Part shown: positions 11,953-40,240 of the stretch, piece by piece
Layout of the letters: every line of letters starts with the position of its first letter
Numbering within the stretch: the stretch's first letter is position 1
Origin: Thermoplasmata archaeon
Lineage (GTDB): Archaea > Thermoplasmatota > Thermoplasmata > Lutacidiplasmatales > UBA184
Length of the DNA stretch: 64,000 nucleotides
NCBI GenBank assembly: GCA_022750435.1
Contig: JAKIVS010000001.1
Coordinates: 286,895 to 350,894, forward strand
Direction of reading: 5' to 3'
The notes under the pieces: model-generated
Told to the model about the DNA's origin: nothing
What the model saw: only the letters and a program-made list of their open reading frames with translations
Database searches by the model: none
Program-made: the position numbers and the translations under genes

Positions 11953-12264
11953 TCCTGGACGAGAACTCTTCGCGGCGCGGTCGAGGGTCCCCGGGGGAGC
12001 GTCGTCCCCCGGCGCCGACGGCCCCCGCAAGGCGACCGGCCGCCGCGGGGGCGATTCCCCAATCGACGGCATCGTCCGGGCCCCACTCGGTCGGCGGCCG
12101 GCGGGGGAGAGGACAGGCGTCACGCCCTGCCTGGACCGTCACGCGGTAGAGGTTCCGGAGTCCGGCGGGACCAGGATCCGGCCGCCCCAATCTTAGTGGG
12201 AGGACGAAGCTCCGGCGTCGACTTCGGGCTTGATAACCCCCCTCCCCTTGGCGAGCTGCGCTGA

Positions 12265-14460
12265 GTGTTGTTTTTGGGACGATCATGGACCGACCCACCA
12301 CTTCGAGCGAGCCGAACGAGAAGCGACCTCTGGGCGCTCCTTTCGATTGCGGTCGTCGCCGTCGAGCTGTTGAGCGTCCTCGGAGTCGCGGTGGCGTCGG
12401 ATCCCAGCCGATCCGGCGGGAGTCAGGTCGCCAACGTCGTCTCGGGACCGGAGGGCGTGGGTGTGGCCTCGACCCAGCTCATGTTGGCCGAAGGCTCGCT
12501 GGCCGAAGGAGCGGGACCGGCCCACGGCGCCGCCTGGCACTGTTCGGCCCCCGGCTCCGGCGGTGCGAGCGCGACGTGCAACGCCGCTCCTCCTGCCTCC
12601 TCGGCTCCGGCGCCCCTCGCGTCGACTCCGTCCTGGGCCAAGCTGACCTATCCGGTCCCCATCACCCGAATCGGGGCGAGCATGGTGTACGATGCGAAAG
12701 ACAAGTACGTGCTCCTGTTCGGCGGATACAACACCTCCGCGCTCGGCGACACCTGGAAGTTCAGCGGAGGAGTCTGGACCCATCTCTCCCCCGGGCGGGC
12801 CCCCTCCGCCCGCTACTTCGCCGGCATGACGTACGACGTCACCGACGGCTACGTCCTCCTCTTCGGAGGATACTCCTCGACGTACCTTTCGGACACGTGG
12901 AAATTCGTGACGGGAGTTTGGACGAACCTCTCTCTGAGCACGAACCCCGGCGGCCGGTACGGGGCCGCGATGGCGTACGACGCCGCGGATGGGTACGTCG
13001 TCCTGATCGGCGGAGTCACGAGCACCGGATGGGCCGCGCCCGACACCTGGACGTTTGCCGCGGGGGCCTGGAGCAACAAGAGCGTGCTCACCCCGTCGCC
13101 CTCGCCTCGAACCTACGCCAGCCTCGATTACGACCCGGCCGACGGCTACGTCGTGCTGTTTGGCGGCTTGAACACCACCTACGGAATTCTCGGCGACACG
13201 TGGACGTACGCGGCCGGAAAATGGACCTTGCTCTCCCCGTCTCCCACCCCACCCGCGCGAGCCCAGGCCGCGATGGCCTACAGCGCCCTGGACGGCAAGC
13301 TCGTCCTCTTCGGCGGCGTTGGAACGGGAGTGTACTACTCGGACACCTGGACCTTCGTCGCGGGCACGTGGACGAAGATCGCCACCGCCGTCCACCCGTC
13401 GAAGCGGGTGGAGTTCGCCATGGCCGACGGAACGTCGACCACGAACGTCCTCCTGTTCGGTGGGAGCGGCCCGGTCTACTACCTGAACGACACGTGGACA
13501 CTTCACGGGCTCATCTGGGCCAAGGCGATCCCCCGCGTCCCGGCCGCCGAAACCGGGGCGACGATGACCTACGACGAAAAGGACGGCTACGTCCTCTTGT
13601 TCGGCGGTGAGACGTCGACCGGCTACTCGTTCTTCGGGACCACGTGGAAGTTCCTGCATGGGATCTGGACGCCGCTGTTCCCGGCCGTCTCCCCGAGTGC
13701 GCGAGCCTTCGCCTCGATGGCCTACGATCAGGCCGACGGCTACGTGGTCCTCTTCGGTGGGATGAGCCGATTCGGGGTCGCTCTCGACGACACGTGGAGT
13801 TTTGTCGGGGGCGTTTGGACCGCCCTGCCCGGGGACACCTCCGCCGGGGGGGTCCCGGGCGTCTCGTACCCGATCGGGCGGTTTCAATCGTCGATGACCT
13901 ACGACGCGGCCGACGGGTATCTGCTGCTGTTCGGGGGGACGAACACGAGCTACTACAGCGGCGTGGGATACGTGGGCGACACGTGGTCGTACTCGGCGGG
14001 CGTCTGGACCAACATGACCCCCACGACGCCGACGGCGACGAACACCCCGTCGCAACGCGCGTCGACCGAGATGACCTACGACTCCGAGGACGGCTACGTC
14101 CTCCTGTTCTCGGGGCTCCAGTGGAATTCGATTTCGGGCTACTCCAGCTACGCCGACACGTGGTCGTTCTCGGCCGGGGTCTGGACCAATCTCACATCCT
14201 CGATGTCGGCCAGCCCGCCCGGGGTGGCCAGCGGGGCGCTGGTCGACGACACCTACGACGGGTATCCTATCCTGTGGGGGGGACTCACCGCAGGAGGGGC
14301 CCACATCACCTCCTCGACGTGGGAGTTCACCGGGACCGGGTGGGTGAAGCTGTCGCCCGCCGCGGCCGCCGCGGCCCAGTCCGGGTTCTCGATGGCGTTC
14401 GACCCTTCGGACAATGAGGTCGTTCTCCTCACCGTGACCGGGCCGACCTGGACTTACTGA
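12265..14460 (+). CDS. N-terminally anchored Kelch-repeat protein (11-12 blades, likely two beta-propellers)
   Basis: GTG start and TM/signal LWALLSIAVVAVELLSVLGVAVA. Blade signature repeated about every 50 aa: YVLLFGGY...GDTWKFSGGVWTHLSP, SDTWKFVTGVWTNLS, GDTWTYAAGKWTLLSP, ADTWSFSAGVWTNLTS and others. Confidence 0.85.
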   Translation: MLFLGRSWTDPPLRASRTRSDLWALLSIAVVAVELLSVLGVAVASDPSRSGGSQVANVVSGPEGVGVASTQLMLAEGSLAEGAGPAHGAAWHCSAPGSGGASATCNAAPPASSAPAPLASTPSWAKLTYPVPITRIGASMVYDAKDKYVLLFGGYNTSALGDTWKFSGGVWTHLSPGRAPSARYFAGMTYDVTDGYVLLFGGYSSTYLSDTWKFVTGVWTNLSLSTNPGGRYGAAMAYDAADGYVVLIGGVTSTGWAAPDTWTFAAGAWSNKSVLTPSPSPRTYASLDYDPADGYVVLFGGLNTTYGILGDTWTYAAGKWTLLSPSPTPPARAQAAMAYSALDGKLVLFGGVGTGVYYSDTWTFVAGTWTKIATAVHPSKRVEFAMADGTSTTNVLLFGGSGPVYYLNDTWTLHGLIWAKAIPRVPAAETGATMTYDEKDGYVLLFGGETSTGYSFFGTTWKFLHGIWTPLFPAVSPSARAFASMAYDQADGYVVLFGGMSRFGVALDDTWSFVGGVWTALPGDTSAGGVPGVSYPIGRFQSSMTYDAADGYLLLFGGTNTSYYSGVGYVGDTWSYSAGVWTNMTPTTPTATNTPSQRASTEMTYDSEDGYVLLFSGLQWNSISGYSSYADTWSFSAGVWTNLTSSMSASPPGVASGALVDDTYDGYPILWGGLTAGGAHITSSTWEFTGTGWVKLSPAAAAAAQSGFSMAFDPSDNEVVLLTVTGPTWTY

Positions 14461-14756
14461 CCCGGGGCCGGCGACCTCGAGCCGACGCTCGAGCGCGCGC
14501 GGTCCTCTCTGGGGGCCGGTGAGCGGCCGCTTTCGGGAGGTCGGGTCCCTCAGCACGCCCCGTTCGATGCGATGAACGTCGGCTCCCACCGCAGGGGACG
14601 TCCCGCGGAATCTGCGCCCCGGCCGAGCGGGTCCTCCTCCTGGCCCAAACGGAGCCCCCGGGCGAGGCGAGCCAGATTTCGAGCGGTGCCCAGGTGCTCG
14701 CGTGGGCCGAGCGTCGGCGCACGTAGATAGGCGGCGCCGCCCTATCCCCGTCGGGT

Positions 14757-17120
14757 ATGACGATGGACGAGCCCGCCTCGGGCACTCCCTTCCTCGGCCG
14801 TCCGGAGGTCGTCTCCAAGCTTCACCGTCGACTCGACGGCGCGCTGGCGGGGACCGGCGGGGTGACCCTGCTGGTGGGGGACACGGGGATCGGAAAGTCG
14901 ACCCTCGTCTTGGGAATGGTCCCGGTGCTGCGAGCCCGAGGGATCCGTACCATCGTCGGCCGAGCCCCGGCAACGACCCCGCCGCCCCCGTACTCACTGC
15001 TTCAATCCGCGATCGGAAGCGCTTCGGAGGACCCGGTGCTCCGGGCCGACGAGAATCCCCCGATGGCGGGAAACCTGTTCCTGATCGCCTTCGCGCTCCC
15101 GCTCGGGGACGTCAACTTCCCCACCCCCGTGGGCATCGAGGCCCGCCTGCTCGAGGTCCTCGGGGCGTCCGACCGACGCGAGAAGGTTTCGCCCGAGGCC
15201 GTCGTGGGGGGAATCGCGGAGCGGTTCCTCGAGTTCACCCGCCACGGACCCACGGTGCTCATCCTCGAGGATATCGACCACGCCGATCCCTCGTCACTCG
15301 CCGCGATCGAATTCTTCGCCCGAGAACTTTCAGCGCGGCCCCTCTGGATCCTCGCCACCACCGTGCCGCCGGAATCCCTCTCCGTCGCCGGGCAAGCCCG
15401 GCTCGAGGAGTTCGAACGGTCGACGAGCGCCGTACGGATCGGACTTCCCCCGATGACGTCGGCAGAGACCTCCGAACTGCTGCACTTGCACGGTCGGTCC
15501 GGTGGACGTTCGGCCGAGGAGCTCGAGCGGTGCTTCGCGCAAACGGGCGGGAACCCCCTCCTCGTCCTGCAACTCGACCGCCGGTCCCCCCTCGGTCGTG
15601 AGCTCCGGGCGGAAGGCGCCGACCTCACCCCGCTCGACTCGTTGGCCCAACAGATCCTGGAGGTCGCCGCCGTACTCGGTCGCCAGTTTCCCTTCGACCT
15701 CCTCCAGCGCGTCAGCGGCTTGAGCGAGGAGCGGCTCGCGGAGGGCGTCGAGCGCATCGTGACGCAGGGACTCCTTGTCGAGCGCCCGGACGAAATTCTT
15801 GAATTCCCCGTCGACCGGCTCCGAGAGTCCGCGTACGAGCGAATCCCCGAGATTGGTCGTCGGATCCTCCATCGGACGGCCGGTGAGGCCCTGGAGGAGC
15901 TGCGGGGCGCCGATCCTTCTCGCGTCTACGAACTCGCCCGCCACTTCTATCTCGGTCGAGCGAGCGCGAAGTCCGTCCGGTACAATCGACTCGCCGCCGA
16001 GGTCGCAGATCGAGCCTTGGCGCCCGAGGTTGCGTTGGAGCACCTTCGTCACGCCCTAGACAGCTCCCGAAATCGCCCGGCCGCTGACCGCCATTCCGAA
16101 TGGGAGCTGGTGCTCGAGATGGCGCGCGTCGCCTACGACCTGGGCCGACTCGAGGAAACGGAACGGGCCCTTCGTGGATTCCTGGAACCGGAACCGACCG
16201 GACTCCCCGCACCGGTCCGGGCGACGCTCGAGGTGTGCCTGGCGCAAACGTTGGTCGCCCGCGGGGACGTCTCGGCCGCTCAGGCGATCTCGGAGAGAGT
16301 GCTCGCGGCGCCCGGGCTCGACGACCAGCTTCTCGTCCGGATTGGGGCGCATCACCAGCTCGGCCAGGCGCTCTACTACGAGGGCCACTATCCGGAGGCG
16401 CTGGCCCATCATTCGGAGGAGATTCGGTTGGCGAGATCCGCCGGCAACGAGCGGGTCAGTGCCCACGCGCAGCTCTGGCACGCGGGCGTGCTTGCCATCA
16501 CCGGGGAGTGGACGGCGGCCATCGCGGAAGCACGGGAGGTCGCCGCCGCTCTCGATCGACTCGGGTCGGTGCGAGAATCCGGCCAGGGCCACTTGTTCCT
16601 AGGGAACATTCTCGCCGACTCGAAGTCCCCGGCCTATCGCGAGGAGGCGATTTCGGAACTCGAGGAGGCGATCCGCCTGGGCGAGCGCGCGAACGACCCC
16701 CGCCGCGTCGGCTGGGCGTTTTACCACACCGCCGAGCTCCTCCGAGCCGCGGGGCGCCTCGAGGAGTCGGGGCGGAATGCGCGGCGGGCGTGCGAAACCC
16801 TCGGCCGGGTCGGGGACCGGACCGGGCTCGCCATGTCGCTCAAGGTGCGCGGTCAGGTTGCGATGGAGCAGGGGGCGTACGACGCCGCCGAGCAGGACCT
16901 GACGGAGGCGTACCGCGGGATCCAGGGGCGAAACCAGTCGATGATCGAGGTCGACGTCGTTCTTCGTCTCGCCCAGTTGTCCATCGCCCGAGGCGACCTG
17001 GCGGGCGCGCGTCGCCAGTTCGCCGAGATGGAGCGACAGCACCTCCCAACGATTCGACCGGACCTGAGCGAGGAGTTTGCTCGTCTCCAGCGCGACCTGG
17101 CACCCGAGGCGGGTCACTAG
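14757..17120 (+). CDS. STAND-type P-loop NTPase (AAA_16-like) with a long C-terminal TPR/helical-repeat array
   Basis: N-terminal FLGRPEVVSKLHRRLD..GGVTLLVGDTGIGKSTL (Walker A) and VLILEDIDHAD (Walker B). The C-terminal ~450 aa are helical repeats with TPR-like AxxxxG/YxxA periodicity. No obvious HTH. Confidence 0.7.
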   Translation: MTMDEPASGTPFLGRPEVVSKLHRRLDGALAGTGGVTLLVGDTGIGKSTLVLGMVPVLRARGIRTIVGRAPATTPPPPYSLLQSAIGSASEDPVLRADENPPMAGNLFLIAFALPLGDVNFPTPVGIEARLLEVLGASDRREKVSPEAVVGGIAERFLEFTRHGPTVLILEDIDHADPSSLAAIEFFARELSARPLWILATTVPPESLSVAGQARLEEFERSTSAVRIGLPPMTSAETSELLHLHGRSGGRSAEELERCFAQTGGNPLLVLQLDRRSPLGRELRAEGADLTPLDSLAQQILEVAAVLGRQFPFDLLQRVSGLSEERLAEGVERIVTQGLLVERPDEILEFPVDRLRESAYERIPEIGRRILHRTAGEALEELRGADPSRVYELARHFYLGRASAKSVRYNRLAAEVADRALAPEVALEHLRHALDSSRNRPAADRHSEWELVLEMARVAYDLGRLEETERALRGFLEPEPTGLPAPVRATLEVCLAQTLVARGDVSAAQAISERVLAAPGLDDQLLVRIGAHHQLGQALYYEGHYPEALAHHSEEIRLARSAGNERVSAHAQLWHAGVLAITGEWTAAIAEAREVAAALDRLGSVRESGQGHLFLGNILADSKSPAYREEAISELEEAIRLGERANDPRRVGWAFYHTAELLRAAGRLEESGRNARRACETLGRVGDRTGLAMSLKVRGQVAMEQGAYDAAEQDLTEAYRGIQGRNQSMIEVDVVLRLAQLSIARGDLAGARRQFAEMERQHLPTIRPDLSEEFARLQRDLAPEAGH

Positions 17121-29872: not shown

Positions 29873-30950
29873 CGATGTCCTCGTCGGCGAGCGGGTGGCC
29901 CCGCCCGACGGTCTGACCCGGGAAGCGTGCGCTCTTCCCCCAGACTTGCGCCGCCTTGAACGCGGCGTCGAGCTCTGTCGGGAGACGCTTCAGGAGGTCG
30001 GTGACCTTCTGTCCCTTGCGGAGAATCACCGGTTCGTCCATGTCCGGCTCCCCGCCCGGGGGCTTCACGTAGATCCGGATGAACTGAAGGGCGTGGCCAA
30101 TGGCCTCGACGAGGTCCGGAAGGGCGATCCGCTCCCGGGCCGAGATGAACCGGGGATGGAACTCCGCCAGTCGGACGGCCATCGCCTCGCGCTGGGCGGG
30201 GGAGAGGAGCTCGCACTTGTTGACGGCGAGGATCGCGTGCTCGTACACCCGGTTCCCGGCGAGGATGTCGATGAGCTGGTCGGCCGTCGCGTCTTCCCGG
30301 AAGACGATCTGACCGTTGTGGAGCCCGAACTCCCGCGCGATGTCCGCGGCGAGGCCGCCACCGAGGTGCGTCAACTTGACGGTGCTCGAAACGGTGAGTC
30401 CCCCCCGGTCGGCCTTGGTCACGACGATCTTCGGCGGCCGCGTGTTGATGCGGACGCCGGCCCCCTCGAGTTCGTTCTTGAGCGCGGTGAAGTCGGTGTG
30501 TTCGGGGTCGATCAGGAACAGCACCAGGTCGACGGAGCGGACCACCGACAGGACCTCGCGACCCCGGCCTCGCCCCTTGGCGGCCCCGGGGACGAGCCCG
30601 GGCATGTCGAGGATCTGGATCGACGCTCCGCCCCAACGGAGCATTCCCGGAATGATCGAGACGGTGGTGAAGTCGTAGGCCCCGGTTTCGCTCGCCGCGC
30701 CCGTCAGCCGGGTGAGCAAGGTCGACTTTCCGACGGACGGGTACCCGACGAGTCCGACGGTGGCGTGCCCGGATTTCCGGACCGAGTAGCCGGAGCCGCC
30801 GCCCTTCCCCTTCGCGCGGAAATCGCGCTCGAGCTTGAGGACGGCGATTTTCGCCCGGAGGCGGCCGATGTGCCCCTGGGTGGCCTTGTTGTACTGGGTC
30901 TTGCGGATCTCGTCCTCGACCGCAGTGATCTGCTCCTCGAGCGAGGACAC
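29832..30950 (-). CDS. DRG-type (developmentally regulated) GTP-binding protein with TGS domain
   Basis: GTG at 30948-30950 within ORF 29832..31793. (V)SSLEEQITAVEDEIRKTQYNKATQGHIGRLRAKIA, G1 GYPSVGKSTLL, DFTT, G3 LDMPGLV, and a C-terminal TGS. Confidence 0.85.
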   Translation of the reverse strand: MSSLEEQITAVEDEIRKTQYNKATQGHIGRLRAKIAVLKLERDFRAKGKGGGSGYSVRKSGHATVGLVGYPSVGKSTLLTRLTGAASETGAYDFTTVSIIPGMLRWGGASIQILDMPGLVPGAAKGRGRGREVLSVVRSVDLVLFLIDPEHTDFTALKNELEGAGVRINTRPPKIVVTKADRGGLTVSSTVKLTHLGGGLAADIAREFGLHNGQIVFREDATADQLIDILAGNRVYEHAILAVNKCELLSPAQREAMAVRLAEFHPRFISARERIALPDLVEAIGHALQFIRIYVKPPGGEPDMDEPVILRKGQKVTDLLKRLPTELDAAFKAAQVWGKSARFPGQTVGRGHPLADEDIVTIVVQRGAPAGS

Positions 30951-30994: not shown

Positions 30995-33460
30995 GTGCCG
31001 GCGGGCGGTGGGGCACCTTCCATCGTTCGACCGGGACGATGCGGACTTGGTGCGGGAGGCGCACGGGACGCGGTGGCCGGCCCAGCGCGTGCCCCTTCCC
31101 GACTCGAACGGAGCTGGGCGTTCCGCGGCGCTCCCCGACCGGCCCACTCCGACCGGAGGGATCGCTTCCACGGAGCCCTCCTGGCGGCCCTCCGCATCGC
31201 ATCGGGATGGCCTGTCGAAATCGTCCTTCGATGGAGCACGGGCCCACGCGCAGCCTTCCTCCTCGACACGGTCGATGCCCCGTCGACGGCATGGGCGACC
31301 ACGGCCCTGCTCCCGATCTATCCGGCCGGAAGTTGGGGGGCCGGGTCCGCACTCCCGGCCCTTCCGGAGCGTCGGCACGCCGTCGCCGTGGCCCGCCGTG
31401 GAATCGAACGTCCGTTTCGCCGCTCCTCCGAACTCGCCGCTCCCTGGGTCGATTCGGTCGCCGCGGCGCTCTCGCTCTTTCCCCCGGGAGGCGCCGTTGT
31501 TTGGCGACTCCGCCCGCTTGGTGTCGCGTCGACGGCAACTCCCTGGGTCGCTCCACCCTCCCCTCAACCCGTTGGTTGGCGGTCCCCACTCCCCACCGAC
31601 ACCGTGCGGCGTCTCGACGACGCGGCGTCCGCCCGTTCGATCGCTCCGTTCTGGGACCTCCGGGCCGAGCTGGTCGGTCACTCGCTCCCGGCGGCCGATG
31701 CGCTCGGACGTCTGATCGCCTCCGCGGCGCAGGAGGAGGGCGGGAACGGAATCCGCTGGCGTCGGTCGACCCGGTGGTTCGGCCGGACTCCACCCCCGAT
31801 GTGGCTCTCGGTCGAGGAGCTGGCGAACTGGTTCCCGTCGCCGTGGCTGCGGCTACCGGACTCGACTCTCCCGGCCGTCGAGGGCACCCGCGTCCTCCCG
31901 CTGGGCCGCACCCTCACCGGACGGTCGTGCGGACTTTCGGTCGAGCCGGCCCAGGGCCGTCACGCTCTCCTGCTCGGCGAGACCGGGATGGGAAAGAGTT
32001 CCCTCCTCGTCCGGCTGATGGCGCGCGCCGCGGCCCTCGGGGCCGTGGTGTTCTTCGACCCGATCGGCGATACGTCCCGCCGGTTGATCGACCACCTCCC
32101 AGAAGTCGACCTCGGCCGGGTGGTCTGGCTGTCCCCGGCCTGTTCCCCGGTGGGAATCAATGCGCTCGCGCCCGCGGCGCCGGACTCGTTGGCCGGTCAG
32201 CGGGCCCTCGGCGACCTCGTCGAGGCCCTGCGCAGGGTCCGCGCCGGGCGGTACGCCGAGTCGCCGTTCTGGGGTCCGCGCCTCGAGGAGATGCTCACGT
32301 TGGCCCTGCGGGCCGCCTCTCGCTATCCCGGTGGGACCCTCGTCGACGCCGCCACGCTTCTCGGGGGAGGCGGTCGTTCGCCCCGGGGAGTTCCCCCCGG
32401 AGCCGAGTCCGCCGTCCAGGAACTCATCGATCGGATCCGCGACCGGCCCGACGAGATCGACGGTGCGCGCCGAGTGCTCGGCGAAGTCGTCCGTACGCCG
32501 ATCCTCGCTCGGATGCTCCCAACTCGGACGCCGGCGTTCTCGATGGCGGAGGCGATCCGGACCCGTCGCATCGTGCTGGTGAGTGGGGACGCGCCCGAGG
32601 TCGGGGAGGCCGCCGCCCGGACGCTCCTCTCGGTCCACCTTGCCCTCCTATGGCTCGAGATCGTCGCTCGCCCGGCGGCGAAGACGTTCGTCGTCGCCGA
32701 CGAGATCCAGGGGTACTCGAACGATGCCGCAGTGGAGCTGTTCCGAATGGGCCGACGGTTCAACGTCCATCTCTGGGCGGCGACGCAATCGTTGGCCGCC
32801 CTCCCCGAGGTCGTCCGGGAGGCCGCGGTCACGAACGCCGCGGACATTGTGGTCTTCCGAGGATCGCCGGACGACGCCCGCGAGGTGGCTCGCTGGGCCC
32901 CCGAGCTGGCGAGCGAGTCGCTCCTCGGGCTCCGTCGCGGCGAGGCGGCCGTGCTCGCCGGGAAGGGGTCCGACGTGGCCTGGGTCCGGATCCCGTTCGA
33001 GCCCGACCGGCCCCGACCCGACCGGTGGTCGACCCTCTGGGAGCAGTGCCGACCCTTCTGGAGCCCGAATCCCGCTCCGGAACCTCCGACCGAGCCGCAC
33101 GACGGCGCGCCGCCGGACGCCGGAGACAGCGAGGATCCCGTTCGGGAGATTCTCCTCGTCCTTTGGGCCGGCCTTCTTGCGACCTCCGAGGGGGCGGCCC
33201 TCACGGTGTCGCTCGATGCGCTCCGGGAGGCCGTGGACCCATCCGGCGCCGGGGTTCGGACCGTCGGTCAGCGACTCTCGGCCGCCGGCGCGCTCGAGGT
33301 CGGGAGCTCTGCGGCCGGACGTACATGGACGGTCGAGCGCGCGGCCGTGGCGGCCTTGCTCGGGGCGGGGGTGGCGCCGGCGGAGCTGGTCGAAGCCGAC
33401 CGGCGGTGGGCGCGCGTCGCCACATCGTCCGGCGGTTCCGGGGCTCAAAAAGGACTTTAG
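30995..33460 (+). CDS. HerA/FtsK-superfamily (DUF87/VirB4-VirD4-like) P-loop ATPase with unassigned N- and C-terminal regions
   Basis: Walker A LLLGETGMGKSSLL (~31976), FFDPIGD, Walker B FVVADEIQ (~32686), and RRFNVHLWAATQS. The start is uncertain, and GTG 31073 is an alternative. Confidence 0.7.
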   Translation: MPAGGGAPSIVRPGRCGLGAGGARDAVAGPARAPSRLERSWAFRGAPRPAHSDRRDRFHGALLAALRIASGWPVEIVLRWSTGPRAAFLLDTVDAPSTAWATTALLPIYPAGSWGAGSALPALPERRHAVAVARRGIERPFRRSSELAAPWVDSVAAALSLFPPGGAVVWRLRPLGVASTATPWVAPPSPQPVGWRSPLPTDTVRRLDDAASARSIAPFWDLRAELVGHSLPAADALGRLIASAAQEEGGNGIRWRRSTRWFGRTPPPMWLSVEELANWFPSPWLRLPDSTLPAVEGTRVLPLGRTLTGRSCGLSVEPAQGRHALLLGETGMGKSSLLVRLMARAAALGAVVFFDPIGDTSRRLIDHLPEVDLGRVVWLSPACSPVGINALAPAAPDSLAGQRALGDLVEALRRVRAGRYAESPFWGPRLEEMLTLALRAASRYPGGTLVDAATLLGGGGRSPRGVPPGAESAVQELIDRIRDRPDEIDGARRVLGEVVRTPILARMLPTRTPAFSMAEAIRTRRIVLVSGDAPEVGEAAARTLLSVHLALLWLEIVARPAAKTFVVADEIQGYSNDAAVELFRMGRRFNVHLWAATQSLAALPEVVREAAVTNAADIVVFRGSPDDAREVARWAPELASESLLGLRRGEAAVLAGKGSDVAWVRIPFEPDRPRPDRWSTLWEQCRPFWSPNPAPEPPTEPHDGAPPDAGDSEDPVREILLVLWAGLLATSEGAALTVSLDALREAVDPSGAGVRTVGQRLSAAGALEVGSSAAGRTWTVERAAVAALLGAGVAPAELVEADRRWARVATSSGGSGAQKGL

Positions 33461-33485
33461 GGGCGACCCCCCCTTGTTTCCGCCG

Positions 33486-34262
33486 ATGGCGACTGCGGCG
33501 AGACCGGAACCGGCGGATGCCGGCGGGATCCGGGAGCGCTGCGTCACCGGGATCGAGGGGCTCGACAACATCCTCGGAGGTGGCATTCCCCGGGGGAACC
33601 TGGTGCTCGTGGCCGGAAGCGTCGGCACGGGCAAGACCACCCTCTGCCTCGAATTCCTCGTCCGCGGCGCCGAGAAGGGAGAACGCACGCTGTTCCTTTC
33701 GGTCACCGAGGCGTCGGCGAAGCTGATCGAGAATCTCTCCACGTTCGAGTTCTTCCGCCAGGACTTGGTGAGTTCCGGCGCGCTGGTTTTCGTCGACGTA
33801 CCGCAGATCTACGACCGACTGGGCCTCAACCACGAGGAGCTGACCGTCGAGGAGATCGACCTCCTCCTGAAGTCGTTCCTCGACCTGGTCAAGGAGGTCG
33901 GCGCCCAACGCGTCATCGTCGATTCCCTGACCTCCGTCTGCTACCGGATCCGGCGCGACGAGCGGATCCGCGACTTCATGCTGAAGCTCTCGCAGGGGCT
34001 CGCGGCGCTCGGCTGCACCACGCTGCTCGTGTCGGAGATCGGCCAGAGCGCCGGACGCTACTCCCTCCACGGCGTCGAAGAGGCGATCGTCGACGGCGTG
34101 ATCCTCCTCGGGAACGCGCGGCGGCAGGGGGACATCCTGCGGATCCTGCAGGTCGTCAAAATGCGGGGAACTTCGCACTCCCGGGCCCAGTACGTGATGG
34201 AGCTCACGCCGATCGGATTGCTGATGGCGCCCCACCTGAAGGGCGGCCGGCAGGAGACGTAG
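33486..34262 (+). CDS. KaiC/RadA-like single-domain RecA-superfamily ATPase (motifs intact)
   Basis: ATG 33486 inside ORF 32583..34262. TGIEGLDNILGGGIPRGNLVLVAGSVGTGKTTL, Walker B RVIVDSLTS, and ILQVVKMRGTSHS. Confidence 0.8.
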   Translation: MATAARPEPADAGGIRERCVTGIEGLDNILGGGIPRGNLVLVAGSVGTGKTTLCLEFLVRGAEKGERTLFLSVTEASAKLIENLSTFEFFRQDLVSSGALVFVDVPQIYDRLGLNHEELTVEEIDLLLKSFLDLVKEVGAQRVIVDSLTSVCYRIRRDERIRDFMLKLSQGLAALGCTTLLVSEIGQSAGRYSLHGVEEAIVDGVILLGNARRQGDILRILQVVKMRGTSHSRAQYVMELTPIGLLMAPHLKGGRQET

Positions 34263-34849
34263 TGGCTCCCGACGACGAGATCGGCGAGCGTCTCCGGCAG
34301 CTGGCCGGGGGCTCGGCGGTGGCGATCCGCCTCAACCCGCGCGAGTACGCCGACGACTACTTCGCGGTCCTGAACGCCACGCTGCGGGACGTCGGCAGCG
34401 AGACGAACGCCCACACGATCTACGTCTCGGTGACGAACCCCGCCTCGCTGGTGTGGTCCCTGGCTCAAGCGCTCGACGTGGACCCGACGCGCCTCTCGTT
34501 CGTCGACGCGATCAGCCACATCATGATGAACTACCGCGACCCGCTCCCGAACGCGACGTACGTGGAGTCGCCGCGGATGCTGGAGGACATCATGCTCCGC
34601 ATCGAGTACTTGCTCCGCAAGCACCCGAGCCCGCGGCAGATCCTCGTCATCGACTCGGTGAACTCCCTCGCGATCCACAACCCACAGGACCTGTTGTCCG
34701 AGTTCTTCCATATCCTGGTGAACAATCTGAAAAGTCGCCAAGTGCTCACCGTGCTCCTGGTCGTGAGCGAGGACACGGGCTCCGAGCTCAACCAGATGCT
34801 CGGCCTCGTCGTCGACGAATCGATCGAGGTCGTCCGGGGGCGGCAGTAA
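34262..34849 (+). CDS. P-loop-less RecA/KaiC-fold-like protein (DUF835-like pattern)
   Basis: The GTG start overlaps the upstream TAG by 1 nt. It keeps ILVIDSVNSLAIHN (Walker-B-like strand) and VLLVVSED but has no GxxGxGK[ST]. Confidence 0.5.
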   Translation: MAPDDEIGERLRQLAGGSAVAIRLNPREYADDYFAVLNATLRDVGSETNAHTIYVSVTNPASLVWSLAQALDVDPTRLSFVDAISHIMMNYRDPLPNATYVESPRMLEDIMLRIEYLLRKHPSPRQILVIDSVNSLAIHNPQDLLSEFFHILVNNLKSRQVLTVLLVVSEDTGSELNQMLGLVVDESIEVVRGRQ

Positions 34850-34853
34850 CCCG

Positions 34854-35633
34854 ATGGTCGACGACCAGAGCGTTCTCGGCATCCGCGAGCTCGACTCGGA
34901 GCTGTACCCGTACATGCCTCCGGGCTGGCTCGGACTCCTCGTGGGCCACTCGGGCTCGGGCACACCGCTCTTCGCGAAGCAGTTCGCCCAAGCGATGGTC
35001 GGTGCGTCGCCGGTTCTGTACTACACTACCTACGAGCGGACCGAGGACGTCCACCGGGCATTCCGCGACTTTGGCTGGGACCCGGACGGGGTCCAGATCG
35101 TCAACCTCTCCGAGGAGTACTTCCGGAACGTCCTCGTCCACTCCTTGGAGGTCTCCCAGCTCCGGGAGCGCGGTCTGAAGCTCTCGGACCTCGACGGCTC
35201 GAAACCCCGGCCCCCGACGCCGACGACCTACAACATGATCAGTCGGCTGCTCGCCGACCTGGCGGCCCTCGACGGCCGCTTCCGCCTCGTGCTCGACTCC
35301 CTCGACTTCTTCTTCGAGGTGCTCGAACCGACCGAGGTCATGACGGTGGTTCGACAGATCCGCCACCGGGCGCAGGAGCTGGGGGGACAAGCGCTCCTCG
35401 TCGTTCAGGGCGAGTTCCACGAGCGACGGATCTCGGGCCCGTTGGAGGACATGGCGGACCTGGTCGTGGAGTTGAGCGCCCGCCCACGCGGGGAATCGTA
35501 CGAGCACACGCTCGCGGTGCGGAAGATCCGCAACCACCCGGAGCGCACCCGCATCCTCCCCGCCAAGATGACCGGAAGCGGCCTTTCCGTCGTCGCGACG
35601 GAACCGACCGCCAAGCCGGGGCGTCCCGGTTAG
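34854..35633 (+). CDS. KaiC-like paralogue with degenerate Walker A
   Basis: GWLGLLVGHSGSGTPLF, where GK[ST] is replaced by GTP. RLVLDSLDFF. LAVRKIRNHPERTRILPAKMTGSGLSVV corresponds to the KaiC C-terminal motif. Confidence 0.65.
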   Translation: MVDDQSVLGIRELDSELYPYMPPGWLGLLVGHSGSGTPLFAKQFAQAMVGASPVLYYTTYERTEDVHRAFRDFGWDPDGVQIVNLSEEYFRNVLVHSLEVSQLRERGLKLSDLDGSKPRPPTPTTYNMISRLLADLAALDGRFRLVLDSLDFFFEVLEPTEVMTVVRQIRHRAQELGGQALLVVQGEFHERRISGPLEDMADLVVELSARPRGESYEHTLAVRKIRNHPERTRILPAKMTGSGLSVVATEPTAKPGRPG

Positions 35634-35680
35634 CGCAAACTTATCTACGCCGGACTCGGTTCGTCGTCGTTAGGCGTATC

Positions 35681-36463: not shown

Positions 36464-37549
36464 ATGGCCGCGCCGCCCGGCCCGCCGGAGGTCCAGGCCC
36501 GCCTTCTCGCGGCGGCCGCCGGCGGAATCCTGCGGTTCGACCGGTTCGTGGAGATCGCCCTCTACTCGGAGGGGGGGTTCTACCGCTCCCGCGAGAGCCC
36601 ACTCGGCCGACACGGGTCGTTCTACACGGCCGCCCACGCGTCGCCGCTCTTCGGTGCGGCGCTCGCGCGACGGCTCTGCGCCGAGCGCGAGCGGCTGGGC
36701 GCGAAGCGACCGTTCCGCGTCGTGGAGGTGGGTCCCGGCGACGGGACCCTCGCCCTCGACGTGGCGCGGTCCCTGCCCACGGACGGACCGCGATGGCGGT
36801 GGACCTTCGTCGAGCGCTCGCCCACGCTCCGAGCGCTGCTCGAGGAGCGGATCCGGCGGGAGGCCGTGGGGTCTCCCGTCGCCTTCGACTTCGCCCCGTC
36901 GCTCGGCGGCGAGGGAGCGATCGTCGGCGCCGTCGTGGGAAACGAATTCCTGGACGCCCAGCCGTTTCGCCGGGTGGTCCGTCACCCCGGTGAGTGGCGG
37001 GAGCTGGGCGTACGGTGGAGCGGCTCCTCGTGGGAGTGGGCCGAGGGCGATGGGCCGACCGTCGTTCCGGGCGAACCCCTCCCAGACGCCGAGGGGGGGA
37101 CCCGGTACGAGCTACTCGAGCGGGCCGAGGGATTCGTCCGCGAGGTCGCGGATTCGCTCGCGGAAGGGACTGCCATCTTCCTGGACTATGGCGCGAGCAC
37201 GACGGAGCTCGTTCGCGGCCACCCTGGAGGGACGCTCGCCGCCGTCCGCGGCCACCACCCGGTACCTCCCCTCGAGGCCCCTGGGAGCGCCGACCTCAGT
37301 GCATTCGTCGATTTCTCCCGGCTTCGCGCCGCGGCGGCGCGGGCCGGCCTCCGTGAGCGCGCGTTCCGCTCGCAAGCCGAGGCGCTCGGCGAGTGGGGGA
37401 TTGGCCCGCTCATCGAAGGTGCCGTGGAAAAGGCCGAGAGCGCCGAGGAAGGCGTCCGGATCCGGCTCGCCGCGAAGAATCTCCTGTTCGGGTTCGAGAC
37501 GTTCTCGGTGCTCGAGCTCGAGGCGCCGGGGCCGACCGTTATGTCGTGA
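36464..37549 (+). CDS. MidA/NDUFAF7-family (DUF185) SAM-dependent methyltransferase
   Basis: FDRFVEIALYSEGGFY, FYTAAHASPLFG, VVEVGPGDGTLALDV and GNEFLDAQPF. Confidence 0.8.
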   Translation: MAAPPGPPEVQARLLAAAAGGILRFDRFVEIALYSEGGFYRSRESPLGRHGSFYTAAHASPLFGAALARRLCAERERLGAKRPFRVVEVGPGDGTLALDVARSLPTDGPRWRWTFVERSPTLRALLEERIRREAVGSPVAFDFAPSLGGEGAIVGAVVGNEFLDAQPFRRVVRHPGEWRELGVRWSGSSWEWAEGDGPTVVPGEPLPDAEGGTRYELLERAEGFVREVADSLAEGTAIFLDYGASTTELVRGHPGGTLAAVRGHHPVPPLEAPGSADLSAFVDFSRLRAAAARAGLRERAFRSQAEALGEWGIGPLIEGAVEKAESAEEGVRIRLAAKNLLFGFETFSVLELEAPGPTVMS

Positions 37550-38195
37550 CGGTCCGCTCGTCCCGCTTCACGAGCTCGGCGAGTCCACTCTGGACGAGCA
37601 ATCTCGCGCGCTCCTCGGGCAGCGCGAGCACATCCTCGGCCCGGAGCTCGATCGTCTCCTTCCCGATCTCGACCGCGGGACCGTCCTTCAGCACCCGGAC
37701 ATAGGTGAGACGCGGCGCGGAGGGGGCGGACAGGGCGCTCGCCGGAGCCGGGGGGAGCCCGGGCAAGCTCGGGCCGAGTCCCAACGCGGGGGGTGGAGCC
37801 GTCGACGCACCGCCGACGTCCAGGAACGGCGCGACCGCGGTGCGATGTCCCCGGAGGACGCGAGAGAGCTGGTCGAACAGCTGGCGCTCCTCGGGCAGCG
37901 CGTTGGGGACGTCGCGGGAACCCCCGATGCTCCCCTGGAACGCCACGCTGAGGATCTTCGACATCCGTGCCTCGACGATATCCCGCGCGACCTGGCTCGC
38001 GCGGGCGTGCGTCTGACGGGCCAGGTCCCCCTTCTTCCCGCCGGGATTTTCGCGGAGCTCCGACTCGAACGTGCGACGCACCTCGGCGAGGTACGCCTGG
38101 GTGGACTCGTAGAACTCGAGGGGCAGCTTCGCGAGGCCCCGGGCCGCGCCCTCCGCGCGGCGCCACTCGAGCAGCTGGGTGTACTGGTCGGGCAT
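37539..38195 (-). CDS. GINS complex subunit (Gins51-type)
   Basis: ATG 38193-38195 inside ORF 37539..38639. A-domain LLEWRRAE..LAKLPLEFYESTQAYL...ARMSKIL, a Pro-rich linker, then B-domain TYVRVLKDGPAVEIGKETIELRAEDVLALPEERARLLVQSGLAELV. Confidence 0.7.
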   Translation of the reverse strand: MPDQYTQLLEWRRAEGAARGLAKLPLEFYESTQAYLAEVRRTFESELRENPGGKKGDLARQTHARASQVARDIVEARMSKILSVAFQGSIGGSRDVPNALPEERQLFDQLSRVLRGHRTAVAPFLDVGGASTAPPPALGLGPSLPGLPPAPASALSAPSAPRLTYVRVLKDGPAVEIGKETIELRAEDVLALPEERARLLVQSGLAELVKRDERTVTT

Positions 38196-38276
38196 CGCCG
38201 ACCCTCCGAGGGGGTCGAGCCTAAAGGTCTTGCCGAGTCCCCGGGGGATGACGCCGTTCGGCGTCGCGGGCGCACG

Positions 38277-38726
38277 ATGGCCGAGACGCCGGACCGGGTC
38301 GCGGCGTGGCCCGAGTTCGTCCGGTTGTTCGACCGGTTGAAGGACGAGATGGCTACTGGGAAGGTCGTCGTGCTCGTCGAGGGGATCCGCGACCGCCGCT
38401 CGCTCCGGTCCCTCGGGCTCGAGGGGCCGGTCGAGCTCGTCCACGCCGGCCGGACAATGAGCGAACTCGCCGCCCACCTGTCGCGGGAGGGGCGGAAGGT
38501 CGTCGTCCTCACGGACTGGGACACGGCGGGGGGCCAGCTCGCCCGTACGCTCCGGGAGTTCCTCGGGGCCGAAGCGGTCGGGATCGACCTGGAGTACCGA
38601 CGACGGCTCGCCCGGGTGCTGCGCGGCGAGCTCGTCCACGTCGAGGGACTGTTCGGATGGGCGCGGCGAACGGCCAGCGAGGCCGGGGTTCTATTGGACA
38701 GCGGCGACGTCGACGCCCCGGGGTAA
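38277..38726 (+). CDS. Small stand-alone Toprim-domain protein (primase/RNase M5-like)
   Basis: ATG 38277 inside ORF 36654..38726. VVVLVEGIRDRRSL (Toprim Glu) and VVVLTDWDTAGGQL (DxD). Confidence 0.7.
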   Translation: MAETPDRVAAWPEFVRLFDRLKDEMATGKVVVLVEGIRDRRSLRSLGLEGPVELVHAGRTMSELAAHLSREGRKVVVLTDWDTAGGQLARTLREFLGAEAVGIDLEYRRRLARVLRGELVHVEGLFGWARRTASEAGVLLDSGDVDAPG

Positions 38727-39394: not shown

Positions 39395-39739
39395 AGTAAG
39401 CCTCGCGCTTGTCGTCGGGCGGCCGCTCTCGGAGCGGTCGGATTCTCGGTCGGAGAACCGACCGTGGAGCGAGCGCCGGGGACTCGCCTCGTCCGCGGGC
39501 CGGGGGTCACTCACGCGGCGGATCGACCGAACGGACCGGCGCCTCGGCTCGGACTCCTTGGGCCGAGCGGTCGTGGTGGACGAACGTAGGACCCTGGGGG
39601 CGTCGGCCGCGCCCGGAGGCTCTCATGCGGTTGCTTCCCACCCTCGGTCGATGAGGATTTCAGTTGCGGCCTACGGATTCTTATACCACTCGACTCGAGC
39701 GATAGGTTGCACCGACAGCCGTCGGCGCGAGGCAGAGAA

Positions 39740-40240
39740 ATGGGACTCAAACTGCGCCGGAGAAGCGTCTATGCAGGCACGATCGTAGCGATGATGGCGT
39801 TGATTGCGGGGCTCGCGATGGCCTCGTTCGTCTCCACCGTCACGACCGGTGGTCAGAACGCGTACAGCGTCACCTCGGCGACCGGTACGTCGTACGCCAC
39901 AGGCATCCCCTCCGTCAACCTGGTCTGGACCACGGCGACCGCCTGTACGACGACGGGAACGGTCTCGTCGGTGGGTCCGACGGTGAATGTGTTCATCGCC
40001 GGTCAGGCCGCGTGTCAAACCGCGACCCCCGACTGGTTTGAGGAACTCTCCTTCCCGGGCACCGCCCTGGTGGCGAACCCGATCGACGCCTTCGCCGTGA
40101 CGGTCGGCGCCAACGCCCCGGTTCTCTTCTCCTCCTCGCTGACGACGACGGCGACGCACGCGATCACGACCAACGTGTACTACGAGGTCGGATCGTCGGC
40201 GACGTCCACGACGTCCGACGTCGGGATCACGGGCGACTAG
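39740..40240 (+). CDS. Small Thr/Ala-rich secreted protein with a basic-then-hydrophobic N-terminus (possible class III/pilin-like signal)
   Basis: MGLKLRRRSVYAGTIVAMMALIAGLAMASFV, followed by a T/S/A/V-rich beta-type sequence. GAGG lies 10 nt upstream of the ATG at 39740. The alternative TTG start at 39707 is about 24 nt after TTCTTATACC. Confidence 0.5.
   Translation: MGLKLRRRSVYAGTIVAMMALIAGLAMASFVSTVTTGGQNAYSVTSATGTSYATGIPSVNLVWTTATACTTTGTVSSVGPTVNVFIAGQAACQTATPDWFEELSFPGTALVANPIDAFAVTVGANAPVLFSSSLTTTATHAITTNVYYEVGSSATSTTSDVGITGD

Follow-up and report, generated by a model that had tools for sequence, protein, structure and literature searches.

Four consecutive genes on contig JAKIVS010000001.1 (assembly GCA_022750435.1) of an archaeon of the order Lutacidiplasmatales (Thermoplasmata, UBA184), here named g1 to g4, encode a VirB4/TrwB/HerA-class ATPase (g1) and three KaiC-like proteins (g2, g3 and g4). 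They lie near the middle of the stretch that we analysed, 64,000 nucleotides (nt) from positions 286,895 to 350,894 of the forward strand, referred to below as the window. Among the uncharacterised regulators of archaea, KaiC-like ATPases rank with the most abundant. A first-pass annotation made from the sequence alone had taken the four genes for one expression unit and one dedicated system. On balance, our comparison of related loci favours another reading, in which the locus consists of two adjacent but separable units, a pilin-linked KaiC-like trio and an order-specific VirB4-like ATPase. We regard the units as separable because the trio has a promoter-like box of its own, g1 and g2 are set apart in several relatives, one locus has g1 without the trio, and 86 loci from outside the order are free of g1. 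Since pilin genes follow the KaiC-like genes in 72 of the 74 informative loci of that outside set and a g1-like gene occurs in none of the 86, the conserved module appears to be the KaiC-like pair or trio, ancestrally located beside pilins, with g1 as an order-specific neighbour.

KaiC-like genes and pilin genes outside the order

An exhaustive profile search of representatives with the g3 family was needed to reach other clades; a plain homologue search listed close relatives only. The profile search yielded 819 g3-related clusters at E ≤ 1e-3, of which 143 scored at E ≤ 1e-10. These relatives are of two kinds, stand-alone proteins of about 190 amino acids (aa) and C-terminal domains of large TPR/CARDB proteins, the latter with the Pfam labels DUF7504, DUF7090 and DUF835. 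Distant g3 homologues are annotated as FlaH by their sources. From the contexts of distant members and 80 metagenome loci we assembled a set of 86 loci outside Lutacidiplasmatales, 650 kb in all, which was analysed with hidden Markov models (HMMs) for g1 to g4 and for pilins; the metagenome scan for the pair or trio used an alignment of eight sequences.

In this set g2 is located immediately upstream of g3 in 64 of 64 loci. A g4 gene accompanies them in 50 of 80 loci, and the other 30 have the g2-g3 pair only. One or more Pilin_N-type pilin genes lie no more than 1.5 kb downstream of the pair or trio in 72 of the 74 informative loci, and the g1 HMM found no match in the 650 kb. The outer flanks vary and comprise OMPdecase-RraA, XPD helicase, TPR giants and peptidases. 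At these loci outside the order the four families thus do not occur together, and the proposal of one dedicated four-gene system loses its footing here.

Several distant proteins of 920-1776 aa (P0294, P0308 and P0310) are giant TPR/SNAP-like plus CARDB/Ig-like proteins that end in a g3-type P-loop-less KaiC domain (DUF7504), and at one locus (L090, 1-4305, minus strand) the trio has as its divergent neighbour a gene for a TPR protein longer than 1435 aa. This architecture suggests that TPR scaffolds plug into KaiC-like assemblies. At another locus, L088, from a Methanomassiliicoccales metagenome-assembled genome (MAG), a type III-A CRISPR effector locus (Cas10/Csm1, Csm2 and the Csm3-5 RAMPs; 11634-16570) follows the g2-g3 pair and its pilin at a distance of about 3 kb, probably by coincidence.

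One predicted active and two degenerate KaiC-fold proteins

An open reading frame (ORF) check of the window recovered all four plus-strand ORFs, and the junctions given in the first-pass annotation proved exact: 25 nt separate the g1 stop codon (TAG, 33458-33460) from the g2 ATG at 33486, g2 and g3 overlap by 1 nt in TAGTG at 34260-34264, and 4 nt lie between the g3 stop (TAA, 34847-34849) and the g4 ATG at 34854. All quoted motifs of the four products were likewise found at the computed coordinates (Table 1).

That g2 is a canonical KaiC-like ATPase is borne out by the Pfam match (PF06745, 5.9e-57; 193.1 bits against a cut-off of 26.6, residues 21-246) and by a Walker A core, GTGKTT, that is invariant in 79 sequences; the motif VVKMRGTSH is present as well. 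KaiC-type NCBIfam models gave 4e-43 to 3e-30, compared with 1e-12 for ArlH. The specialised models were not reached, with circ_KaiC at 97 against a cut-off of 546, and ArlH (NF052589, cut-off 215) at 48.3 for g2 and 26.4 for g4. Among proteins of known structure the relatives of g2 are KaiC (2e-54), PH0186 (2e-36), PH0284 (2e-32) and FlaH (3.5e-7). By sequence, g2 is therefore unambiguously assigned to the single-domain KaiC-family proteins and is nearer to KaiC, PH0186 and PH0284 than to ArlH/FlaH or RadA/RadB. It resembles the single-domain archaeal KaiC-like ATPases and the CI and CII domains of KaiC over its full length (E 1e-54 to 1e-32). The circadian protein, however, has a CI-CII tandem and an E-E pair and acts with KaiA and KaiB, whereas g2 is a single domain with T-E at the catalytic position, has neither KaiA nor KaiB nearby, and has no KaiB-like gene within ±8 kb.

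The g3 product just exceeds the Pfam KaiC cut-off (3.7e-6; 26.9 bits against 26.6). Profile-profile alignment by hhalign of the g3 family with g2 (E 0.044) and g4 (E 0.17) was too weak to decide because the g3 alignment has low diversity, so that the fold was settled by structure prediction. The AlphaFold2 model (predicted local distance difference test score, pLDDT, 84.8) superposes on KaiC domains, which head the Foldseek list with query template modelling (TM) scores of 0.62-0.69 and root-mean-square deviations (rmsd) of 3.3-4.6 Å over 184-193 columns, i.e. the full length. The Walker A motif is absent from g3 in every family member. With the P-loop-less KaiC-like domains DUF7504, DUF7090 and DUF835, g3 and its relatives give sub-threshold to significant matches; g3 differs from these in being a stand-alone protein of 190 aa that is always translationally coupled to an active KaiC-like gene and in scoring below their cut-offs.

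For g4, hhalign gave E 6.8e-5 over 222 columns with the g2 family. At the place of the Walker A motif, all 75 species show G-x-S-G-S-G-(A/T/S)-(P/S/H), never with lysine, and the motif AVRKIRNHPE is present as quoted. The earlier description of genes 3 and 4 as RecA-fold proteins without a functional P-loop is thus correct: g3 is placed within the fold by its predicted structure and g4 by its profile match, and neither has the Walker A lysine. Although g3 and g4 share the KaiC fold, two obligately co-encoded P-loop-less paralogues set this group apart from the known KaiC-like ATPases.

A promoter-like box in front of g2

Within the order we compared 87 loci, and the statistics for the trio come from about 76 species. 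The g2-g3 and g3-g4 gaps range from -32 to +10 nt in these species and never exceed 10 nt across the 87 loci. As g1 has 137 species-level relatives and the trio is kept in about 76 species with gaps of at most 10 nt, the arrangement is not a chance one. At the same loci, identities across the order amount to 65-93% for g2, 64-99% for g3 and 38-96% for g4, compared with only 37-64% for g1. All relatives come from Thermoplasmata MAGs, several of them labelled Lutacidiplasmatales or UBA184, and a partial NCBI MAG protein (P0001) is identical (100%) to g1. At one locus (L177, contig_19268, 2.18 Mb) the g1-g4 region is split into many short ORFs, and the near-identical L176 is intact; the likeliest cause of the breaks is frameshift errors in a long-read assembly, not pseudogenisation.

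The distance between g1 and g2 is far less uniform: it can be as short as 25 nt or as long as 4.6 kb. One subclade (L027, L039, L047 and L055) has a 180-aa DUF1697 gene on the opposite strand between the two, and other minus-strand genes separate them in L029 and L053. In L071, g1 is followed by response-regulator genes, and the trio is absent within 6 kb.

Upstream of g2 we found a conserved non-coding sequence with the consensus ACAACCCTCTTAGGG...GGCTCGTTTC...ATG, which in the window takes the form CTCAAAAAGGACTTTAGGGG...CCTTGTTTCCGCCGATG. In 72 of 80 unique upstream regions the distance from the end of its T-rich box to the in-frame start codon of g2 is 21-25 nt, compared with 1 of 82 for a control stretch inside g1, and the box is still there in loci where g1 is far off. 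A box-to-start spacing of 21-25 nt is what one expects for an archaeal TATA box driving a leaderless mRNA. Because this conserved and tightly spaced box precedes g2, the genes g2-g4 probably form their own transcription unit with a TATA-like promoter and a leaderless mRNA. The initial assignment of all four genes to one expression unit is therefore not upheld, given the box of its own before g2 and the opposite-strand genes that split g1 from g2 in relatives.

The last codons of g1 (QKGL-stop, AAA GGA CTT TAG; 33440-33460) coincide with the promoter-like box of g2. A comparison of P0002, P0003, P0005, P0006 and P0008 revealed that the nearest g1 homologues share a (Q/R)KGL C-terminus, and remoter ones end in QPS. 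The C-terminal residues of g1 may be constrained by the overlapping promoter, not by protein function.

One machine or two neighbours

Some observations weigh against a separate, pilin-linked trio. The box pattern was derived from the same sequences in which it was counted, so that its enrichment is inflated, though the tightness of the spacing is not. As g1 and g2 lie on the same strand and only 25 nt apart in the window, read-through co-transcription from g1 is possible, but it is not required. The pilin HMM detected no pilin gene in the window (64 kb), nor at any of the 87 Lutacidiplasmatales loci, and a pilin role in this order therefore rests on orthology to other clades. Neither a pilus-assembly ATPase nor TadC adjoins the pilin clusters outside the order. 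A few related clades contribute the majority of the 86 distant loci, whose g3 proteins have a median pairwise identity of 71%, so that part of the pilin linkage could itself reflect inherited synteny; as a counterweight, the linkage holds for trio-type and pair-type loci alike and across several kinds of outer flank.

A 177-aa ORF of the window (39707-40240, plus strand) looks pilin-like by eye: the N-terminus of its product, KLRRRSVYAGTIVAMMALIAGLAMA, is reminiscent of a class III (pilin-type) signal, and the body is rich in Thr and Ser. The ORF was rejected as evidence since it matches neither Pfam Pilin_N nor the pilin HMM.

The opposite reading, a single four-gene system whose g2, g3 and g4 proteins form a hetero-hexamer that docks on a hexameric g1 and gates it, much as ArlH docks on ArlI, seems unlikely to us, at about one chance in several. 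It would account for the fact that in 84 of the 87 loci g1 directly precedes g2 with the same orientation, a layout that was also obtained when the search started from g3, and it has a precedent in ArlH, a KaiC-like partner of the FtsK/HerA-superfamily secretion ATPase ArlI (PMC4858521). It is important to note, however, that the whole neighbourhood is syntenic throughout the order and the arrangement is seen only in this one order, so that the adjacency of g1 and the trio is not independent evidence of function. The promoter-like box, the separation of g1 from g2 by opposite-strand genes or several kilobases, the trio-less L071 and the lack of g1 at the outside loci all speak against it, as does the evolutionary rate of g1, which is two to three times that of g2 and g3.

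The neighbouring ATPase g1

The first-pass annotation had given g1 a length of 821 aa. The ORF is indeed open from the GTG at 30995 on the plus strand, but this reading is probably too long because the conservation of the family starts near residue 40. An in-frame GTG at 31073 would give an N-terminus that matches the closest full-length homologues, P0002 (797 aa) and P0003 (796 aa), and would leave 122 nt of divergent intergenic DNA up to the DRG GTPase start at 30950; judged from the sequence, it is probably the true start of a 795-aa protein.

The AlphaFold2 model of g1 (pLDDT 89.3, from an alignment of 73 sequences) consists of an N-terminal alpha/beta domain, an ATPase core with a helical insert, a disordered linker and a C-terminal unit. 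The latter is predicted to have an H-beta-H-H-beta-beta order, i.e. a winged-helix topology, followed by a long terminal helix, and contains conserved R, G and W positions; a match to the TBPIP/Hop2 winged helix is weak (E 0.23). No Pfam family matched the N- and C-terminal regions, even at E ≤ 5. In a Foldseek search against the PDB, TrwK/VirB4 (8rtd_O) aligned with E 2.4e-14 over 792 columns, with a TM score of only 0.38, and this full-length alignment suggests that the N-terminal domain is VirB4-NTD-like. At the domain level, g1 matched TrwB (1e9s; target TM 0.63, rmsd about 5 Å) and the VirB4 C-terminal domain (4ag5). Further matches were DndH-C, TdpA, SIR2-HerA, DUF4297-HerA and HerA (4d2i, E 3e-11), and among viral models the VirB4-like proteins of large Bacillus phages (phage G Gp156, E 1.5e-26).

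Sequence profiles are far less telling. The best one, PADLOC mad8, matched the core with 2.3e-14 over positions 23-298 of 314. DUF87 (21.9 bits, cut-off 23.2), TrwB_AAD_bind (14.6, cut-off 20.5), FtsK PF01580 (14.1, cut-off 24), HerA_antiphage (19.8, cut-off 800) and CedB all matched in the P-loop neighbourhood only and stayed below their thresholds; against PDB sequences the g1 profile gave P-loop-level matches only. The predicted structure nevertheless supports membership in the FtsK/HerA superfamily, with VirB4, TrwB and HerA as nearest structural relatives, in line with the initial placement of gene 1 in the HerA/FtsK/VirB4-VirD4 class. Most likely g1 is a hexameric translocase of nucleic acid or another substrate.

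VirB4/TrwK, VirD4/TrwB and CedB provide the best full-length and domain-level structural matches, and the helical insert is comparable to the all-alpha domain of coupling proteins. Unlike them, g1 lacks an N-terminal membrane anchor, has no secretion genes as neighbours and carries the extra predicted winged helix. No transmembrane segment was detected in g1, the maximum 19-aa hydropathy (1.79) being located at the strand beside the P-loop. Within ±8 kb we found housekeeping genes only and no genes for type IV secretion, Ced or a relaxase, in agreement with the earlier statement that Ced membrane partners, NurA/Mre11/Rad50 and arl genes are missing. A winged helix also occurs in the gamma domain of FtsK/SpoIIIE; that of g1 is predicted from topology, with no sequence match.

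Could g1 be a HerA-like ATPase of defence or mobile-element origin, akin to mad8, DndH, TdpA or Sir2-HerA, that became fixed beside an unrelated KaiC operon? We consider this rather improbable, although the mad8 match covers nearly the whole profile and the core of g1 resembles these proteins by structure too. Such an origin would fit the fast divergence of g1 and its relaxed composition (GC content at third codon positions, GC3, 0.82 compared with 0.90-0.94 in its neighbours; lysine 0.5%), as well as the weak relatives on haloarchaeal and Rhodococcus plasmids and the phage VirB4-like proteins. Against it stand a fixed chromosomal site among housekeeping genes in 137 species, a uniform overall composition, and the lack of an adjoining partner such as NurA or another nuclease, Sir2, a methyltransferase or another effector. 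The plasmid matches are limited to 24-34% identity over the ATPase core, and the contexts of two plasmid relatives (H1 and H2) were uninformative. A phage origin was rejected, as tblastn gave no match to phage. Other genes of the MADS system, including its methyltransferase, were not found among g2-g4 or the neighbours, where PADLOC gave no further match except a P-loop cross-match of g2. In its core g1 resembles HerA and the defence ATPases, and it differs from them in its partnerless, fixed housekeeping locus and its sub-threshold DUF87 score.

Comparison with known hetero-oligomers of the RecA fold

Rad51-paralogue complexes typically combine an active paralogue with inactive ones. One could hence imagine the trio as recombination mediators of the Rad55-Rad57 or Shu type that form a repair module with g1 as DNA translocase; g2 has weak matches to RadB, RadA and RecA (1e-8 to 1e-5), and g1 is HerA-like with a predicted winged helix. 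We hold this to be highly improbable, for the match of g2 to KaiC families exceeds that to RadA/RadB by at least 30 orders of magnitude, and its orthologues are tied to pilins and not to repair genes in 72 of 74 loci, with NurA, Mre11 and Rad50 not nearby.

The three RecA-fold paralogues of reduced ATPase capacity also mirror Elp4-Elp5-Elp6, but a ring of this kind acting on tRNA or translation-related substrates is most improbable. It would fit a neighbourhood rich in ribosome and rRNA-modification genes (Nop, fibrillarin, SpoU methylase) and Pfam hits, to PAXNEB/Elp4 for g2 (9e-5, and a weak one for the g2 of L088) and to Iki1/Elp5 for g3 (0.005) and its distant homologue P0244 (0.00095), that fall short of the cut-offs (PAXNEB 22.1 against 28, Iki1 16.8 against 22.5). 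However, the Foldseek top 50 for g3 are KaiC, RecA and F1 with no Elp5, 30 of 80 loci have only the g2-g3 pair, and the neighbours outside the order are pilins, not translation genes. The concept of a RecA-fold hetero-oligomer made of active and degenerate subunits is common to the Elp456 and Rad51-paralogue complexes and the trio; the trio differs from both in its genomic context and in having only sub-threshold sequence hints of either.

A model for the trio and its neighbour

For the two-unit reading that we prefer, the following picture can be drawn. The genes g2-g3-g4 would constitute a translationally coupled three-gene operon for one live and two dead ATPase paralogues. The g2 protein is expected to bind and hydrolyse ATP, and g3 and g4, which keep the RecA/KaiC fold, would bind no nucleotide through a P-loop. 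The three may join in a RecA-type ring of mixed composition, or in a smaller hetero-oligomer, with working ATP sites on g2 alone and with g3 and g4 as fixed non-catalytic interfaces or adaptors. An adaptor role would fit because the g3-type domain also caps large TPR scaffolds. Such an assembly would presumably be an ATP-dependent switch like ArlH or CirA, not a motor. Since the orthologous pair or trio in other Thermoplasmatota-type archaea almost always precedes pilin genes, it most likely served ancestrally to control or assemble some surface or envelope function based on pilins, and the Lutacidiplasmatales version would have lost its adjacency to pilin genes. As a conserved neighbour, g1 would be a hexameric VirB4/TrwB/HerA-type translocase with a nucleic-acid-binding tail, possibly one that moves DNA.

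A connection of KaiC-like proteins with pili has been noted before. Archaeal type IV pilus loci show a strong association with KaiC arCOGs (PMC4858521), and CirA, which is KaiC-like, acts in the regulation of pilin-dependent motility in Haloferax (PMC10983859). With ArlH and CirA the trio has in common the KaiC fold and, outside the order, pilins beside the pair or trio. However, ArlH and CirA are single proteins, whereas here one active protein is encoded with one or two inactive paralogues; ArlI and ArlJ do not adjoin the trio, and g2 reaches only 48 bits with the ArlH model (cut-off 215). We see in the trio a variant, not yet described, of the known association of KaiC-like proteins with type IV pili, which extends this predicted link and is not a categorically new system. 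The gene for its active KaiC-like subunit is obligatorily accompanied by one or two genes for pseudo-ATPase paralogues, with strong purifying selection acting on the set. A hetero-oligomeric switch of the KaiC type can thus be modelled here in a concrete and testable form, with a logic like that of the Elp456 or Rad51-paralogue complexes. In contrast, g1 represents a new order-specific VirB4/HerA-class family whose place in the machine of the trio should not be taken for granted.

A functional coupling of g1 and the trio is possible. In its boldest form, the ancestral pilin-associated KaiC-like hetero-oligomer was re-wired in Lutacidiplasmatales to gate a soluble VirB4-like winged-helix translocase. 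This is a doubtful proposition in our view; if true, the re-wired trio and g1 would make an undescribed KaiC-regulated motor for DNA or another substrate, built in parallel to ArlH-ArlI on a type IV secretion-type ATPase.

Genomic setting

Lutacidiplasmatales are reported to be uncultured archaea of acidic soil and peat with about 69% GC and without archaellum genes (PMC9287336). The window has about 70% GC across its length with an even composition (0.65-0.75), and the genes that flank g1-g4 are housekeeping ones (L1-L10-P1-purF-Nop-fibrillarin, DRG, PAC2, Methyltransf_28, Toprim and L15e, with a SpoU methylase also among the neighbours), both as first described. The earlier view that the locus is chromosomal rather than mobile gains support from its fixed, housekeeping-flanked position in the relatives and from the lack of phage sequence matches, and vertical inheritance is supported likewise. 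Coordinates of the features are collected in Table 1.

Table 1. Features of the g1-g4 locus; positions refer to the window unless a relative is named.
Feature	Position	Strand	Basis or remark
g1, soluble VirB4/TrwB/HerA-class P-loop ATPase	31073..33460	+	795 aa from probable GTG; ORF, AlphaFold2, Foldseek
g1 N-terminal alpha/beta domain	31109..31858	+	Model residues 1-250; family-invariant residues
g1 ATPase core	31886..32998	+	Motifs invariant across 73 homologues
g1 Walker A GETGMGKSS	31976-32002	+	Motif
g1 FFDPIGD	32051-32071	+	Motif
g1 helical insert in ATPase core, like all-alpha domain of coupling proteins	32189-32518	+	
g1 Walker B VVADEIQ	32690-32710	+	Motif
g1 RRFNVHLWAATQS	32753-32791	+	Motif
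g1 C-terminal region, predicted winged helix 33137-33361, then long helix 33377-33442	33137..33442	+	DSSP on model
Promoter-like region of g2-g4	33444..33485	+	A-rich stretch plus T-rich box
T-rich box CTTTAGG	33455-33461	+	Overlaps g1 stop codon; ends 24 nt before g2 ATG
g2, single-domain KaiC-family ATPase, 258 aa	33486..34262	+	Pfam PF06745 5.9e-57
g2 Walker A GSVGTGKTT	33615-33641	+	Motif
g2 T-E at KaiC catalytic E-E (E77-E78) position	within 33699-33716	+	
g2 Walker B RVIVDSLTS	33909-33935	+	Motif
g3, P-loop-less KaiC/RecA-fold protein, 195 aa	34262..34849	+	Pfam, AlphaFold2, Foldseek
g3 family motif FVDAISH	34499-34519	+	
g3 family motif VESPRMLE	34562-34585	+	
g3 Walker-B-like ILVIDSVNSL	34640-34669	+	
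g3 family motif LSEFFHIL	34694-34717	+	
g4, KaiC-fold protein, 259 aa	34854..35633	+	Pfam KaiC 1.1e-15 over full length
g4 degenerate Walker A GHSGSGTP	34944-34967	+	
g4 Walker-B-like RLVLDSLDFF, retained	35283-35312	+	
DUF1697 insert between g1 and g2	L039 9370-9912; L055 9547-10089	-	

Downstream of g4, the spacer 35634-35680 is GC-rich apart from an A/T-rich element, AAACTTATCTA, about 35-45 nt upstream of the PAC2 gene (ATG 35681). It resembles a separate TATA-type promoter of PAC2, and g4 and PAC2 are for this reason probably not co-transcribed. Between the Methyltransf_28 and Toprim genes a conserved gene without a Pfam match is found on the minus strand (37539-38639). Its longest ORF comprises 366 aa and the orthologous called genes in relatives 219-223 aa; the true start is probably well downstream of the longest reading.

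Two large plus-strand ORFs lie further upstream in the window. The first (9031-11952, 973 aa) begins with a hydrophobic signal-like segment that is followed by extremely glycine-rich GGxGG repeats, which account for a local GC of 0.754 and a GC skew of +0.20; its product is probably a secreted or surface repeat protein. The second (12265-14460, 731 aa) has an N-terminal membrane-like segment and many repeats of the type GYVLLFGG...DTWTF that look like Kelch or beta-propeller repeats.

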